DNA of 31,427 bases from a virus (taxonomy: Duplodnaviria; Caudoviricetes), in the IMG/VR virus record IMGVR_UViG_3300044858_002901, positions 1 to 31,427 of that record. The stretch is one strand, 5' to 3'. A program made the translations under genes and the position numbers. How positions within the stretch are numbered: the stretch's first letter is position 1; every line of letters begins with the position of its first letter. Below, piece by piece: positions 14,973-27,740 of this stretch. The notes under the pieces are model-generated. The model searched no databases. It had not been told where the DNA came from and saw nothing but the letters and a program-made list of their open reading frames with translations.

Positions 14973-15331
14973 CACTGCACCTCGCCGGCCTGGTCCTCGA
15001 ACGCGTCCAAGGCTTCGTCTGTCATTTCGATACGCTTGAGCGTCACGGGCTGGCTTTTGATTACGCGGCGGTCCTCGCGTACTTCCTCGCTCCACGTCGC
15101 CTGGATCTCTTTCTTGGTCTGCTCGATCTCGCGGGGCGTCGGGTCACGCTGTCGCACCGGCTTGGCCCGTAGTCGCCTGTCGTGCCGGGGCGGCAAATGC
15201 CAGACGTGCTTTAGCCTGATGACTTGGTCGCGGGAAATGGTCCACCGCTCGCACAGTGCCCTCATCGGCATGTGCGTCAGCCAATCGGCGCGGAAAGCGG
15301 CAACGCTAATGGTCGCCGTGCAGCCCTTCAT
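14969..15331 (-). CDS. HTH-like protein with RDPTP.EIE motif
   Basis: Helical MRALCERWTISRDQVIRLKHVWHLPPR segment; similar layout to the protein at 19434-19742. Confidence 0.6.
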   Translation of the reverse strand: MKGCTATISVAAFRADWLTHMPMRALCERWTISRDQVIRLKHVWHLPPRHDRRLRAKPVRQRDPTPREIEQTKKEIQATWSEEVREDRRVIKSQPVTLKRIEMTDEALDAFEDQAGEVQW

Positions 15332-16214
15332 TGTCGGTCATCCAAGCCATAACGCATCGCTGCGACGGGTTCAGGTAAAGGTGCTGGCCCGTCGCCTTGG
15401 CGACGCTTGCGTGATACGGAACGTGCTCGCAGTCTTTCACGCCGTCATATGTGCCTTGCAGGAAGGCTTCGGTGCGGTAGATGCACAGCCCGCCGAATGC
15501 AGACGAGACGAGCACGGGAGGCGAGCCAACCGGCGGCAGCCACTGATGCTTCCAGCCGCCAAGGCCAGCGGTGTAGTCATCAAAGTAGCAACGAGACTGC
15601 CCAACTCCACGCAACGCCCAGGCATCGTAGTGCGTCCATCCTTTGCCGATCTTCGGCTTGCGATCCTCGCTCATGCCTAGCATCGTGAACTCGTTGAGCG
15701 AGACGCTGGCCATGCCGTAGGCCCCCTGCAATTGCACGAGCCATCCGATGCCGTTGAGAACCCCGGCGTGCGACCACCCGCCCCACTGGTCCCAGTCGAT
15801 GACGATCACATAGTCGGCGTCGGCGGCACAATCACGCACCCACCGCTGGCACGCATCGCGGTACTCGGCCAGGGCAATCGTCCTGCGGCCTGCGAACTCG
15901 GCCCCGTAGTGCTCGCGGCCCAGAGTCTGCGAAGTAAACGTGGCCTGCTTATACGCATCGGAAAACTCCTGGAGCACCTGAAGCGTCTGGTCGGTGCTGT
16001 CGTTCTCTTCGATGTGCAGTGCCCACGACTTGCACGACCGCACAAGGTGCTCGAGCCGCCCGAGGTTCTCAGCCAGCCGCACGGCACAGTTGCGGGCCAG
16101 CCCGACGAAGGCGAGCTTGGAATTGGCTAGTCGTGTTACGCCATCCTCATACCTTTTTTGGAATAGCTCGGCGAACGGTTCCAACGGGTAGATAAGGTGG
16201 TCGGGAATGTTCAT
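15306..16214 (-). CDS. GT-A glycosyltransferase (CAP59/Anp1-like motifs)
   Basis: GLARNC, EENDSTDQT, LAEYRD, VIVIDWD (DxD), SAFGGLCIYR and DCEHV motifs. Confidence 0.78.
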   Translation of the reverse strand: MNIPDHLIYPLEPFAELFQKRYEDGVTRLANSKLAFVGLARNCAVRLAENLGRLEHLVRSCKSWALHIEENDSTDQTLQVLQEFSDAYKQATFTSQTLGREHYGAEFAGRRTIALAEYRDACQRWVRDCAADADYVIVIDWDQWGGWSHAGVLNGIGWLVQLQGAYGMASVSLNEFTMLGMSEDRKPKIGKGWTHYDAWALRGVGQSRCYFDDYTAGLGGWKHQWLPPVGSPPVLVSSAFGGLCIYRTEAFLQGTYDGVKDCEHVPYHASVAKATGQHLYLNPSQRCVMAWMTDNEGLHGDH

Positions 16215-16744
16215 TTCTTCCACGCGACTCCGAGGCCGTAGCCTTCCGTGATGATTTCGTGCGGTGCATTGTGCTTCGCCACGAACTCGTCAAAGCACTG
16301 CATGAGATCCGGGTGAGCCGGGTGCAAGATGTCATGGAACACCACGCAGCCGCCGGGCTTCACGAGCGGCCAGACGTTCACCAGATCGGCCATGCCGCCT
16401 TCGTATGAGTGGTCGCCGTCCACAAGCACAAAATCGAACGCTTCGGCCTTCTCGGGCATTAGCGCCGGGATCGTGTGTCGGCTGTTGCCGTCGAGAAACA
16501 CACGGCGTCCGTTAAAACTGAAATCGTCCAGCAGCTGCTCGATGTGCTGGTGGTTGCCGCGTCCGCTGCCGCCGTAGTCGCTGCCCCAAAGATCCGCCAC
16601 CCAGACCGAGAGCAGGTCGGCCGCGGCGTTCTCCAGCACGATTCGCAGCGAGTCGCCTTCACGGGTGCCGATCTCGAGGTAGTGCTCGACCTTGTGCCGT
16701 TGGCAGTGCTCAGTTAGGTAGCGGTAGAGGCTGGCGTTGCTCAT
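16211..16744 (-). CDS. class I SAM-dependent methyltransferase (Methyltransf_24-like)
   Basis: LEIGTREGDS, VDGDHSYEG and VKPGGCVVFHD motifs. Confidence 0.9.
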   Translation of the reverse strand: MSNASLYRYLTEHCQRHKVEHYLEIGTREGDSLRIVLENAAADLLSVWVADLWGSDYGGSGRGNHQHIEQLLDDFSFNGRRVFLDGNSRHTIPALMPEKAEAFDFVLVDGDHSYEGGMADLVNVWPLVKPGGCVVFHDILHPAHPDLMQCFDEFVAKHNAPHEIITEGYGLGVAWKK

Positions 16745-17358: not shown

Positions 17359-17395
17359 ATTAGGCTGCGAACTGGCAGCCTAATTCTTGTTCTAT
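17359..17395 (+). other. left boundary of cassette array: perfect 10-bp inverted repeat plus lone GTT core site (attI-like)
   Basis: ATTAGGCTGC-GAACTG-GCAGCCTAAT followed by TCTT-GTTCTAT. GTTCTATTTC (17389-17398) is the exact reverse complement of GAAATAGAAC (17652-17661). Confidence 0.55.
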
Positions 17396-17625
17396 TTCTT
17401 GCCGACGCCCTTCATCCGCAGCCTCAGTAGCCGCCTTCGTTCGTCCATTGAGTCCCGTCGCTTCTGGAGCCGCTTTCGCTCGCGGCCGTCATAAAACACC
17501 ACCCACAACTCCAGGCGTTCATCAATCCAGTGAATGCCACGATCCAGCCTGCGAAGCGTCTCTCTGTCCTTCTGTGAAATCGCGGAGCCACGACTCGAAC
17601 GTGGGCCTTGAGTGCGCTTACTCAT
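17392..17625 (-). CDS. cassette 1 gene, basic hypothetical protein
   Basis: MSKRTQG... (alternative GTG start at 17637). The TAG stop lies inside the GTTCTAT core. Confidence 0.65.
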   Translation of the reverse strand: MSKRTQGPRSSRGSAISQKDRETLRRLDRGIHWIDERLELWVVFYDGRERKRLQKRRDSMDERRRLLRLRMKGVGKK

Positions 17626-17654
17626 GTTCTGCACCACCTAAACTACTCCGCGAA

Positions 17655-17705
17655 ATAGAACCACGCGATGCTGCGGACTAACGCCGCAGATCGCTGGCGT
17701 TCTGT
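17655..17705 (+). repeat. attC-like site 1 (51 bp)
   Basis: ATAGAAC-CACGC-GATGCTGC-GGACTAACGCC-GCAGATC-GCTGGC-GTTCTGT. Confidence 0.85.
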
Positions 17706-17707
17706 GG

Positions 17708-17917
17708 CTACTCGCACTCCAGCGAAACAAACGCCGGGACGAAAGCACCGCCGTAGGTGTCTCGGGTCTGCCGGAGAGCGTCTACCAGTTCCTGCCGCTG
17801 CTTCTGCAACTTGGCGATCACGGCGACAAGACGCCCCATAAGTTCAACGTCGCCGTATATGTCGGATTCCTGGCCGCTTGTGATTCGGTAGTTTGCGATC
17901 TCAACAATATCGTCCAT
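17708..17917 (-). CDS. cassette 2 gene, 69-aa hypothetical protein
   Basis: MDDIVEIANY...; GAGGTG RBS; coiled-coil-like segment. Confidence 0.7.
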   Translation of the reverse strand: MDDIVEIANYRITSGQESDIYGDVELMGRLVAVIAKLQKQRQELVDALRQTRDTYGGAFVPAFVSLECE

Positions 17918-17942
17918 GACTTCACCTCGTTTTTCTACGCTC

Positions 17943-17991
17943 ACAGAACCACGCGATGCAGCGGACGAGCCGCTGATCGCTGGCGTTCTCA
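17943..17991 (+). repeat. attC-like site 2 (49 bp)
   Basis: ACAGAAC-CACGC-GATGCAGC-GGACGAGCC-GCTGATC-GCTGGC-GTTCTCA. Confidence 0.85.
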
Positions 17992-18315
17992 CTTCGTTCG
18001 TTCCAGTAGGTCGCAGATCGCTTCGTAATCTTCAATCTGCTGCATTGTCATGTCGTTGTGATCCATGTCGCGGAACGCGATCCTCACCCTGTCCACCGCC
18101 TCCCGCTCCTCGTCGGTGAGCGTCGGCGAGCGGTAAAGCGGGACGACGCCGTGATTCCCTGTAACAGCCTCGTCAATCGCCTTGGCCTCTTCCTCGATGC
18201 CATAGACATCGTAGATTCGCTGGCCGTCAGCAAGCATCACAGCCCACGCAACTGGCTCCCCGTGAGAACCAGCGGATGCAAGAGACGGCTCGTTGGTGTC
18301 GTTTGGTTTGGTCAT
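17989..18315 (-). CDS. cassette 3 gene, LTDEEREA-family protein
   Basis: 108 aa, EPVAWAV...VVPLYRSPTLTDEEREA...LLERTK. AAGGAG RBS and ATG lie inside the attC3 loop. Confidence 0.8.
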   Translation of the reverse strand: MTKPNDTNEPSLASAGSHGEPVAWAVMLADGQRIYDVYGIEEEAKAIDEAVTGNHGVVPLYRSPTLTDEEREAVDRVRIAFRDMDHNDMTMQQIEDYEAICDLLERTK

Positions 18316-18352
18316 GTCTTCTCCTTGCCGCTCCTGATCCTTGTCGTTCTAC
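18263..18352 (+). repeat. attC-like site 3 (90 bp)
   Basis: TGAGAAC-CAGCG-GATGCAAG-AG(A)CGGC...GCCGCT-CCTGATC-CTTGTC-GTTCTAC. Confidence 0.78.
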
Positions 18353-18379
18353 GTCTCCACTTTCGCTCAAGAGCGCAAT

Positions 18380-18502
18380 TCAGCGGCGTCGCCGATGCCA
18401 GCGAGGCCGATGGCTGGGCTTGTGCGGGAACCCGATAGACAATGCGCCCATCATCACGACGAATACCGCCAAAGCCAGGACGATAACCGCTGTTTCGCTC
18501 AT
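18380..18502 (-). CDS. cassette 4 gene, 40-aa membrane peptide with Arg-rich tail
   Basis: MSETAVIVLALAVFVVMMGALSIGFPHKPSHRPRWHRRRR; GAGGG RBS. Confidence 0.65.
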   Translation of the reverse strand: MSETAVIVLALAVFVVMMGALSIGFPHKPSHRPRWHRRRR

Positions 18503-18521
18503 TGTTCCCTCTCTGATTCCC

Positions 18522-18611
18522 AGAGAACCACGCGATGCAGCGGACCCGCGATGCCGCCGTCTGGTTGTAGTTTCGTCAGCGGTCGCGGGCCGCTGATCGC
18601 TGGCGTTCTCA
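18522..18611 (+). repeat. attC-like site 4 (90 bp)
   Basis: AGAGAAC-CACGC-GATGCAGC-GG(A)CCCGCGA...TCGCGGGCC-GCTGATC-GCTGGC-GTTCTCA. Confidence 0.88.
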
Positions 18612-18842
18612 ACCAAGCCGTGCCAGTATCGACTCAATCGCCTTCCTGTGCGGTTCGTACATGATCGTCGGAAGCATCCCGCGCAACGCCTCCCGCTCCT
18701 CGTCGGTGAGCGCGGGCTGCGGCTCGCGGTATGGAGTGCCGTCAGGGTTTTGGCGGACGTAACCTGCCGATGGCGATGTGATCCACTGTCGGAACAATGC
18801 CTGCTGCTGTGAATCGAACCGCGCCTTCTCGTTGCCATCCAT
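18609..18842 (-). CDS. cassette 5 gene, LTDEEREA-family protein
   Basis: 77 aa, MDGNEKARF...QPALTDEEREAL; GGAGG RBS; TGA stop inside the core site. Confidence 0.75.
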   Translation of the reverse strand: MDGNEKARFDSQQQALFRQWITSPSAGYVRQNPDGTPYREPQPALTDEEREALRGMLPTIMYEPHRKAIESILARLG

Positions 18843-18858
18843 GATTGCCTCCATTCGT

Positions 18859-18907
18859 TGAGAACCAAGCGATGCAGCGGACGAGCCGCTGATCGCTGGC
18901 GTTCTCA
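18859..18907 (+). repeat. attC-like site 5 (49 bp)
   Basis: TGAGAAC-CAAGC-GATGCAGC-GGACGAGCC-GCTGATC-GCTGGC-GTTCTCA. Confidence 0.85.
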
Positions 18908-19138
18908 CTTCGTGCGCTCCAACAGCGACCAGAGTTTTGCGGAATCTGCGCCAACAACCCGATACATCGCGCGAAATATCACCTGCCGCTCCTCGTCGGT
19001 GAGCGTGGGCTGCGGAATCCAACTCCTGCGGTCCAGTTCTCTCGCCGCGTCCAGCAAAACGTCACTGTAATCGGCACCGCAAATGTTGAGCGCGTCGCTC
19101 ATGTCTCGCAGCCGTTCGGCCAGTTCGTTCTGTGTCAT
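18905..19138 (-). CDS. LTDEEREA-family protein at right end of array
   Basis: 77 aa, ELAERLR...AAREL...QPTLTDEERQV...LLERTK; AAAGGA RBS. Confidence 0.78.
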   Translation of the reverse strand: MTQNELAERLRDMSDALNICGADYSDVLLDAARELDRRSWIPQPTLTDEERQVIFRAMYRVVGADSAKLWSLLERTK

Positions 19139-19209
19139 ATCAACGTCCTTTCTCGGGCTGCTCTCTGTGGTCAGTGATGATCGCCGCCTATTTTCGCGGT
19201 TTTCGCTGA

Positions 19210-19437
19210 TTATCGGTCAAAATCCACGCGACACCGTGCAATCAGTTTCTCCAGCACGGCCGCGTGCCGCTCCTCTCCGGGCGTGTCGGCGTACGCCGCA
19301 AACCACGCAATCGCCTCCCGCTCCGCTTCGGTGAGCCGCAGGCGTGCGACCTCCGCCTCTAACTGCTGCACTCGCTCCATCGCCTGGATGAGCGCATCCA
19401 GATCGTCAGGCATCATCGGCGGCACAAGATCACTCAT
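19210..19437 (-). CDS. LTEAEREA-family protein (outside attC array)
   Basis: LEAEVARLRLTEAEREAIAWF; ATGA overlap with the upstream gene. Confidence 0.72.
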   Translation of the reverse strand: MSDLVPPMMPDDLDALIQAMERVQQLEAEVARLRLTEAEREAIAWFAAYADTPGEERHAAVLEKLIARCRVDFDR

Positions 19438-26617: not shown

Positions 26618-26798
26618 ACTGTCCTGCCGCCGCATCCAGCAGAATCCGCCCACTTCCGCCAATCCGAGAATCGCAGTCCCAACACCGCGACAATCGAACT
26701 AGTGAACAAAAGTAGTAGCGGAGGGCATGGGAGCAGGAAAGTCGTACACACTGAACTTGTGTATACTGCCGCTACAACACCAAACGGGAGGCAGTCAG

Positions 26799-27740
26799 AT
26801 GAAGATTCGGGAGCTTTTGCACGAGCGGTACGCACCGTTGCACAACCTGTCGGCCAGGAGCGTGGTGCTCTTCGGCCATTCCATCGACCGGCTAAAAGAC
26901 TTTCTGCAGCGGGAGCCGGAAACTACCGACTTTGACGATCTGGTGATTGCGAAGTTCTTGCGATGGCGGGCCGTCACACCGCACCGCGGCAAGGTCTGCT
27001 CGCCGGCCAGCGTGGCGAAGGACAAGGCCCACATCAGCGCTTTGTGGAACTTCGCCGCGAGAAAGCGGATCGCTGCCGAGTTCCCTGATTTGCCACGCCT
27101 GCGGGTTCCCACGCGGCCCCCACTGGGCTACACGGTCGCCGAGGTGTCTGCACTCGTCAGAGCGGCCAGAACGGCACACGGCTCAATTGGTGGCGTGCCA
27201 GCCCCATGGCTATGGATGACACTGATTCAGTCCCTTTGGTACACGGGCGAGCGGATCGGCAGCCACCTGCGGCTGCGGTGGTCGGAGGTGGAGCTCGACG
27301 CCTGCCGCATTACGTTCTTGGGCGAGACCCGCAAGGGTGGCATCGAGACGATCCAGCGTGCGATCCACCCTGACCTGGCCCAGCAGCTGCGTCGCTACCG
27401 CAGGGCGGATGCCGATCTCGTCTGGCCGTGGCTCGAGCACCGTCGGCCCAGCAGCCTATTCCAATCGCTCAGGCTGCTGTGCCAGCGGGCCGGCGTCAAA
27501 CCGAGGGGATTCCACGCCATTCGCAAGGCGAGCGGTTCATACGTGAAAGCAGGGGGCGGCGATGCCACGGACCACCTTTCGCATTCCAATCCGAAAACGA
27601 CAAAGGATCATTACATCGACGTTTCGATCACGGGCCAGCAGTCGGCCCTGGACTACCTGCCGCCGCTCGACCTGAACGAGCCGCCGCAGGGAGGAGACAG
27701 GCCAGCGGCTGAATTGGGTAGCAACACGGAAACTAGGTAG
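26799..27740 (+). CDS. tyrosine recombinase/integrase
   Basis: Catalytic set R (YTGERIG), K (TRKGG), HxxR (FHAIRK), H (LSHSN) and Y (KDHYID); GGGAGG RBS. It is the only confident plus-strand gene. Confidence 0.93.
   Translation: MKIRELLHERYAPLHNLSARSVVLFGHSIDRLKDFLQREPETTDFDDLVIAKFLRWRAVTPHRGKVCSPASVAKDKAHISALWNFAARKRIAAEFPDLPRLRVPTRPPLGYTVAEVSALVRAARTAHGSIGGVPAPWLWMTLIQSLWYTGERIGSHLRLRWSEVELDACRITFLGETRKGGIETIQRAIHPDLAQQLRRYRRADADLVWPWLEHRRPSSLFQSLRLLCQRAGVKPRGFHAIRKASGSYVKAGGGDATDHLSHSNPKTTKDHYIDVSITGQQSALDYLPPLDLNEPPQGGDRPAAELGSNTETR

Follow-up and report, generated by a model that had tools for sequence, protein, structure and literature searches.

A phage-borne integron platform with a host-type attI site and inverted gene cassettes, probably served by a host integrase

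The 31,427-nucleotide window analysed here is a whole virus record (IMGVR_UViG_3300044858_002901; Caudoviricetes), which has matches to terminase, HK97-type portal and capsid, ligase, primase-polymerase (Prim-Pol), sliding clamp and RecT and carries almost all of its genes on the minus strand. Between a Holliday-junction resolvase gene and the clamp region it holds a row of small genes and hairpin repeats, which a first-pass annotation described, over positions 17389..18910, as integron cassettes whose own two ends are complementary. The locus raises two questions: whether site-specific recombination moves these units as cassettes, and which enzyme is responsible. Judged from sequence, the region is very probably a phage-borne integron platform with an attI-type site, five attC cassettes, eroded older ones and no integron integrase (IntI) of its own, the cassettes being moved by the IntI of a likely Planctomycetota host. 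With five intact attC sites and no intI in the record, it falls under the definition of an attC-site cluster that lacks an integron integrase (CALIN; at least two attC sites, no intI nearby).

Read on the plus strand, the five cassettes occupy 17390..17699 (310 bp), 17700..17985 (286 bp), 17986..18346 (361 bp), 18347..18605 (259 bp) and 18606..18901 (296 bp). The end sequences quoted in the annotation all occur, letter for letter, where it placed them, and the two ends of cassettes 1 to 5 match contiguously over 10 (of 10), 8, 8, 5 and 9 nt. Within the array, the R'' and R' boxes of a single site mostly mismatch past GTTCT, as had been claimed, with matches of 5, 5, 5, 6 and 7 nt at sites 1 to 5. 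The true end pairing is the single best of the 120 permutations of the five left cores; if the R' box of site 5 is offered as well, making six candidates, that pairing's score is equalled or exceeded in 4 of 720 assignments. Cassette 4, already singled out as the exception with only 5 nt, has identical mismatched ends in another phage (L016), there behind a different site.

Homologous arrays show the same pattern on a larger scale. A first attC pattern found at least 130 viral stretches, 80 of them with flanks, and three further patterns added 9, 15 and 106. Cassette units of 100–750 nt from 186 sequences of at least 1.5 kb, a partly overlapping sample from the listed matches, gave at least 266 clusters, near-identical window records being merged by the clustering. 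The shuffle test across homologous arrays that the annotation had set beforehand as its refutation found own-end pairing in excess of shuffled pairings. Among 102 clusters, own ends match over 7.74 nt, in-array boxes over 4.75 and shuffled ends over 5.10 ± 0.14, with no shuffle out of 20,000 attaining the own-end mean and the excess restricted to positions 4–8. Across all 266 clusters, the means are 7.88 for own ends, 4.92 in the array (243 clusters with a complete site) and 4.97 ± 0.08 after shuffling (maximum 5.25 in 10,000), and 18 clusters resemble cassette 4 in matching over 5 nt or less. Integrons of Planctomycetota hosts share this own-end pairing (6.4 versus 4.3). Own-end complementarity is real, yet ordinary, as integron cassettes are expected to show it: a cassette's own attC is the site found in its circular form (PMC2674596).

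The annotation's further claim, that the units moved by site-specific recombination with the R box split on insertion, is well supported by a natural absence of cassette 1 and by the same cassettes standing behind different sites. One contig of a public run (run X1; 1,601 nt, depth 20.7) joins 17388 to 17699 with no extra letters or gaps, so that exactly the 310 bases of cassette 1 are missing, and runs X5, X14 and X21 contain it; cassette 1 is probably the latest insertion. A 93% copy of cassette 1 lies behind an attC site and before another cassette in L433, the body of cassette 4, with the same ends, is the first cassette after a main-type attI in L016, and two cassettes stand in opposite order in L045 and L053. 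Among 36 clusters with differing left neighbours, identity starts exactly at the G in 22; in all 31 with differing right neighbours, it continues across GTT, and in 12 of them it ends directly behind the triplet. These boundaries place the crossover within GTT. The proposed G/TT crossover is thereby bracketed to the triplet by sequence identity, and its exact point comes only from the integron literature. Each transfer unit runs from one GTT to the next, has its own attC and has R boxes that pair in the circular form, which is what defines a cassette.

Homologous recombination between the repeated hairpins could also swap cassettes, without site-specific cutting. The RecT family match in the phage, the near identity of attC2 and attC5 and the occurrence of the same bodies with different attC types are all compatible with such exchange. 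However, the attI-type site and cassette 2, which meet at the X1 junction, share only five bases, cassettes that follow attI in one phage follow attC in another, their boundaries lying at the G, and homologous exchange needs neither conserved bulges nor own-end pairing. As the main explanation it is very unlikely, and for insertion at attI it is largely refuted, although it may act in addition to site-specific recombination.

The architecture of the repeats agrees with that of attC sites. They have R'' (AAC) and R' (GTT) boxes, paired L'' and L' boxes, unpaired spacers and two extrahelical bases about six apart, in the layout AAC, 5 nt, 8-nt box, intervening sequence, 7-nt box, 6 nt, GTT. The R''-L''-L'-R' order, the two unpaired bases on the R''-L'' arm, the purine-rich bottom-strand loop (0.61) and the unit that runs from the T of one GTT to the G of the next are shared with classical cassettes (PMC2727003, PMC5027507, PMC3053210, PMC2674596). 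Unlike classical cores, which follow the consensus GTTRRRY/RYYYAAC, these are mostly of GTTCT type; host sites beside IntI deviate likewise, and only the triplet is described as universal (PMC5027507). In 313 distinct sites, picked by weight matrices with no pairing filter, the arms pair at 8.66 of 9 positions versus 7.06 in shuffled arms, with several pair types per position and compensatory changes; some circularity remains in these figures, since the matrices were trained on sites first found by a pairing rule. Site lengths from AAC to GTT are quantised at 38–40, 44–47 and 74–81 nt, with 78–79 nt dominant in both phages and hosts.

The five window sites, given on the plus strand, cover this range. 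attC1 (17655..17705), of the short type, comprises R'', a 5-nt spacer, L'' with a bulge, L', a 6-nt spacer and R', and its bottom-strand fold has a z-score of −3.8. attC2 (17943..17991; z −3.5) and attC5 (18859..18907; z −5.1), the last intact site, are of the shortest type. attC4 (18522..18611; z −5.2) is long, fully paired and close to the host type, with only 3 mismatches across the 35 nt tested to a site in a host integron (L354). In attC3 (18263..18352), of the long type, the arms pair with both bulges; since its loop is coding, the whole site folds no more stably than shuffled sequences (z −0.6).

The annotation held that end complementarity fixes plus as the top strand. Plus is indeed the top strand, but complementarity is no marker of it: GTTCT...AGAAC reads alike on both strands, and it was rejected for this use. 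Folding energy, tried as another marker, was also discarded, top and bottom differing by less than 3 kcal/mol. The assignment comes instead from bulge geometry. The best bulge is at L'' position 4 (top-strand G in 306 of 313 sites), and a second unpaired base follows six bases on (top-strand A in 298 of 313), giving T-N6-C on the bottom strand; sites of this form are excised well by several IntIs (PMC3053210). By definition the unpaired bases lie on the R''-L'' arm (PMC2727003). Since they are found here on the arm that starts with AAC on plus, minus is the recombining strand and plus the top strand, an orientation also indicated by the attI-type site at the left end and by host genes on that strand.

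A reading of the repeats as RNA elements, such as terminators or processing sites, with the end pairing forming a long-range RNA stem around each gene, was also considered. The hairpins do lie in the transcribed strand ahead of genes, often with a ribosome-binding site, and a second role in translation is plausible. Against this, an Rfam scan gave no match, no terminator-like site was found at any attC, and 8 bp would make a weak long-range stem; RNA elements also leave the attI-type site, the gain and loss at the DNA level and the IntI-linked host copies unexplained. Cassette mobility at GTT already contradicts RNA elements as the main role, and the reading is extremely unlikely.

The left end of the array, on which the annotation was silent, as it was on the inverted genes and the absence of an encoded IntI, is an attI-type insertion site at 17359..17391 on plus. 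It consists of a 10-bp palindrome (stem 17359–17384), a short spacer and GTT at 17389–17391, and has no R''/L'' arm. The same site occurs in L164 and L171 before another first cassette, and a sister site precedes differing cassettes in L163 and L165–L169. Among 24 loci with either attI pattern, a full attC lies at the right in 20, a left arm alone in 2, and the sequence ends too soon in 2; none of the 24 has a full attC at the left. A palindromic site related to that of the window adjoins a divergent IntI gene in a host genome (G352, L424), and the main phage attI type closely matches host attI sites. By position, reuse and likeness to sites next to host IntI genes, the left site of the window is of attI type. 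The host family has two IntI layouts, one facing the array with the main attI (L146, L332–L349) and one divergent with the palindromic attI (L424), and phages carry both attI types. No sigma-70-like site that could act as the cassette promoter Pc was found on either strand, in a scan that is insensitive for this host; as the genes are inverted, Pc could not drive them in any case. The palindrome has a weak terminator score on plus, the non-coding strand.

The enzyme appears to lie outside the phage. A TIGR02249 profile search found no IntI (integron-specific domain) in the window record, which is possibly a fragment of its genome, nor was one found in any of 18 phage records that carry arrays, 14 of which are at least 90% complete and two of which have terminal repeats. 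Conversely, none of 29 viral loci with an IntI relative (L357–L385) carries an array of the attC family of the window; two of them (L381, L382) have attC-like sites of their own, of another family and on the opposite strand. Arrays of the family are carried by phages with unrelated capsid and terminase genes. With no integron integrase in the phage, swapping is likely to be performed by a host enzyme.

Candidate hosts were found among bacterial genomes. The attC pattern occurs in 34 genome stretches, mostly Planctomycetota bins, four of which have IntI beside an array of the same attC family; the IntI of L146 was confirmed at 454 bits. An IntI above the cut-off is present in 87 of 301 genomes at the level of the class and in 61 of 151 at that of the family. 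Genome G383, in which two IntI genes were found, carries 15 clustered regularly interspaced short palindromic repeats (CRISPR) spacers, of which 5 match these phages, including one at 32 of 32 positions to the sister attI, one at 33 of 33 to a flanking gene and one at 34 of 35 to attC4 of the window (18576–18610). Among the host loci examined, the attC spacer matched only phage-type sites. From the look of its repeats and neighbouring open reading frames (ORFs), this CRISPR system may be type I-E with an AAG motif. At its locus (L425, G383:C200, about 1520–2600), at least 2 of the 15 spacers lie on att sites, the parts most conserved across these phages.

Exchange with hosts is also recorded in their integrons. 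One host locus (L354, 6783 to the end, reverse strand) has IntI, attI and then two inverted phage-type cassettes, and three others (L427, L428, L429) hold phage-type cassettes with 89–99% protein identity to phage copies; in three of these four loci they follow an attI-like site directly. No convincing host-type cassette was found in the 266 phage clusters.

The phage cassettes are inverted with respect to classical ones, whose expression relies on genes facing the other way (PMC5027507). In 218 of the 266 phage clusters, the bottom strand carries an ORF that has a ribosome-binding motif and ends in or beside the left R' box; mirrored onto the top strand, the rule picks out 6 of 266, none of which looks like a real gene. 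The same rule applied to host loci gives 0 of 59 on the bottom strand and 11 of 59 on the top. All five window cassette genes lie on minus and depart from the classical arrangement of top-strand genes ending at R'' and read from Pc: they face attI, cannot be read from a Pc-like promoter and follow an attC that is often coding. Among 217 bottom-strand ORFs, the start lies inside attC in 120 and in the body in 97, and long attC loops carry a bottom-strand ribosome motif and start at 76 of 113 phage sites versus 6 of 83 host sites. Family matches are scarce in this cargo: in the first 150 of the 217 ORFs, DUF551 matched 26, a few matched methyltransferase, Mom, HNH, helix-turn-helix (HTH) or zinc-ribbon families, and most had no match. 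Cargo in L047, L234, L069 and L226 comprises DNA methyltransferases, a Mom-family protein and an HNH nuclease; a counter-defence role for methyltransferase, Mom and HNH genes is plausible.

These properties bear on whether the array is a piece of host integron captured once and carried passively. The attC and attI families are host-like, and such captures have been published for Vibrio and Shewanella prophages (PMC9892861). Yet no phage cassette matched any of 59 host cassettes tested, the cargo is short, inverted and phage-like (DUF551 occurs in only 3 of 176 host genomes), and arrays differ between close phages and even inside one population. Passive carriage of a single capture is, on this evidence, hardly credible.

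The preferred reading, movement by a host integrase, suggests the following sequence of events, which is drawn from sequence comparison. During infection or lysogeny, the folded minus (bottom) strand of attC would be the substrate of host IntI. Recombination of attC with attC would excise a cassette as a circle with a fully paired R box, which would explain the own-end match, and recombination of attC with attI would insert it at 17389. Because the genes are on the bottom strand, each inserted cassette is co-oriented with the leftward genes of the phage. Inserted cassettes would be read from phage promoters at the right, the newest cassette coming last in the transcript; attC stands ahead of its gene and, in about half of the cassettes, provides its first codons together with the ribosome-binding site. 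With such an inversion the two pools would stay separate, since a phage cassette is antisense within a host integron and a host cassette is antisense within the phage, and old cassettes at the far end would lose their attC and become fixed phage genes.

Several observations weigh against this reading. The joint 17699 to 17390 expected of a circle is absent among the contig joints listed, which come from contigs only; the remaining joints, being due to repeats at 90% likeness, were disregarded. The exact attI variant of the window, with 5 bases between palindrome and GTT, was not found beside IntI, host palindromic sites having 7, and at the first unpaired position the bottom strand has C where G is usual. 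Some cassette bodies (clusters 17, 84, 85, 86 and 195) carry differing attC types in different phages and, as a result, differing N-termini; this points to exchange at the R'' side or within the beginning of the gene, and such switching needs a further process. The host count of 0 of 59 excludes five phage-like or mixed genome loci (L134, L138, L141, L143, L148), and inverted cassettes do occur in host loci identified afterwards. The host genomes are metagenome bins, in which single joins may be chimeric. Finally, relatives of a tyrosine recombinase encoded by the window occur in 8 of 10 array-bearing phage genomes and lie near the array in five or six loci, among them L006, L025, L031, L233 and L239.

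That last point favours a rival in which the phage's own recombinase, not host IntI, moves the cassettes. Its gene lies at 26727..27740 on plus, 8 kb from the array, and in L006 the relative is on the bottom strand to the left of attI, as in classical intI. However, the window protein matches Pfam Phage_integrase (21.6 bits) and a PHROG integrase family with no match to TIGR02249, and marks a phage tyrosine recombinase rather than an integron integrase. Its relatives are only 20–51% identical while the att sites are nearly the same, and their position and strand relative to the array are inconsistent. One complete phage of 204 kb (G451) carries attC cassettes but lacks any recombinase gene of this kind, and phage att sites match those beside host IntI. 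The phage enzyme is accordingly an unlikely agent, and host IntI remains the favoured one.

Clusters of attC sites in phages have been published before, and the present arrays are a real variant of the integron system, whose enzyme we infer from sequence relationships. CALINs were reported for phages at 17 in 10,705 genomes and treated as captured bacterial material (Qi et al. 2023, PMC9892861); five of six phage CALIN sites were recombined by IntI1 there, and in the text available from that study attI is confined to class 1 elements and one cryptic prophage of Shewanella. As in those clusters, the arrays described here lack intI and some carry DNA methyltransferase cargo; unlike them, they have an inverted, phage-specific pool, gene starts inside attC, a host-matched attI with differing first cassettes and a natural variant. 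With the sedentary chromosomal integrons of Planctomycetota (attC class in PMC8352920; L146, L149, L162, L332–L349, L424) they share the attC family (77–79 nt type) and the two attI types, whereas the host integrons encode IntI and have longer cassettes (median about 609 versus 362 bp in phages) with genes mostly on the top strand. Insertions at secondary attG sites (bioRxiv 10.1101/2022.09.11.507474) are similar in that an integrase acting in trans puts cassettes far from intI, but attG sites are short chance motifs, and the conserved, host-like attI here is reused by many cassettes across phage lineages. A literature search, mostly without subscription journals, found no paper on inverted phage cassette pools with host-type attI. 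What the window adds is a precise natural cassette loss, a bracketed crossover, a CRISPR link to an IntI-bearing host and host-matched attI types.

Integrons are known as bacterial tools and, more recently, as depots of genes against phages; the arrays described here suggest that phages, too, draw on a host integrase to rearrange accessory genes of their own. The docking site would have been copied from the host, the cassette design reversed and the process caught in a natural population. The large and uniform pool (at least 266 clusters), in which attC and gene are fused, offers a handle on the origin of cassettes and supplies substrates for a standard recombination assay. A more tentative idea is that unrelated Planctomycetota phage lineages act as cassette factories that took over the host integron machinery and make new cassettes out of phage genes, with a host-derived attC grafted onto the gene start and an R box onto the stop. 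This is possible, though on balance doubtful. If true, the pool records how integron cassettes are made, and the inverted polarity is a filter through which phage and host share an integrase and not a gene pool.

The individual cassette genes of the window all lie on minus. The ORF of cassette 1 (17392..17637, 81 aa), whose stop overlaps the R' box, has no Pfam or PHROG match, and the same holds for all window cassette proteins, those with the LTDEERE motif included. Cassette 2 encodes 69 aa (17708..17917) and cassette 4 encodes 40 aa (18380..18502), with a hydrophobic N-terminal half, in an ORF that ends short of the R' box. The ORF of cassette 3 (17989..18315, 108 aa) has its ribosome-binding motif and start codon in the attC3 loop and its stop in the R' box; it belongs to the LTDEERE...LLERTK family, which has many relatives in other arrays. 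Cassette 5 encodes a 77-aa member of the LTDEERE family (18609..18842). Beyond the last intact site follow the ORF of an eroded sixth cassette (18905..19138, 77 aa, stop in the R' box of attC5) and a cassette-family gene with no attC (19210..19437). An LTDEERE coding repeat is common to four neighbouring small proteins (18085–18127, 18675–18717, 18968–19010, 19300–19342).

Between the last two genes lies a relic attC (19125..19170, plus), which retains the loop and part of L' of the 74-nt type and has lost its left arm, with a short deletion before the next core. Positions 19125–19163 are 97% identical over 38–39 nt to intact sites in L181 and L055/L056, after which the core is damaged, and the DNA that follows matches a cassette start in L021/L046. 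In runs X5 and X14, loose ends run on from the relic region into the intact site, and contigs join the start of the 19210..19437 gene to an attC arm; that gene is probably an older, eroded cassette. Among array-bearing phages, to which the choice of loci by attC patterns confines the count, 94 of 179 LTDEERE family copies lie inside arrays, 55 within 1.5 kb distally, 26 just left of the first attC (where attI is unrecognised) and 4 elsewhere. For 60 DUF551-like copies the corresponding numbers are 42, 9, 7 and 2. Cassette-family genes without sites concentrate immediately distal to arrays, with almost none to the left of attI, a distribution that fits erosion of old cassettes; it lends no direct support to de novo cassette making from scattered phage genes.

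A methyltransferase gene (Methyltransf_24/TylF) and a 305-aa gene at 15306–16744 are conserved immediately to the left of many arrays. In lake and freshwater metagenomes, at least half of the words of the window were found in 20 of 24 runs listed, and no RNA run appears among the listed holders. A 32-kb, high-coverage contig with phage-type cassettes in a Cyanobium isolate assembly (L138) is possibly a phage of a co-cultured bacterium and, if so, offers a route to culture.

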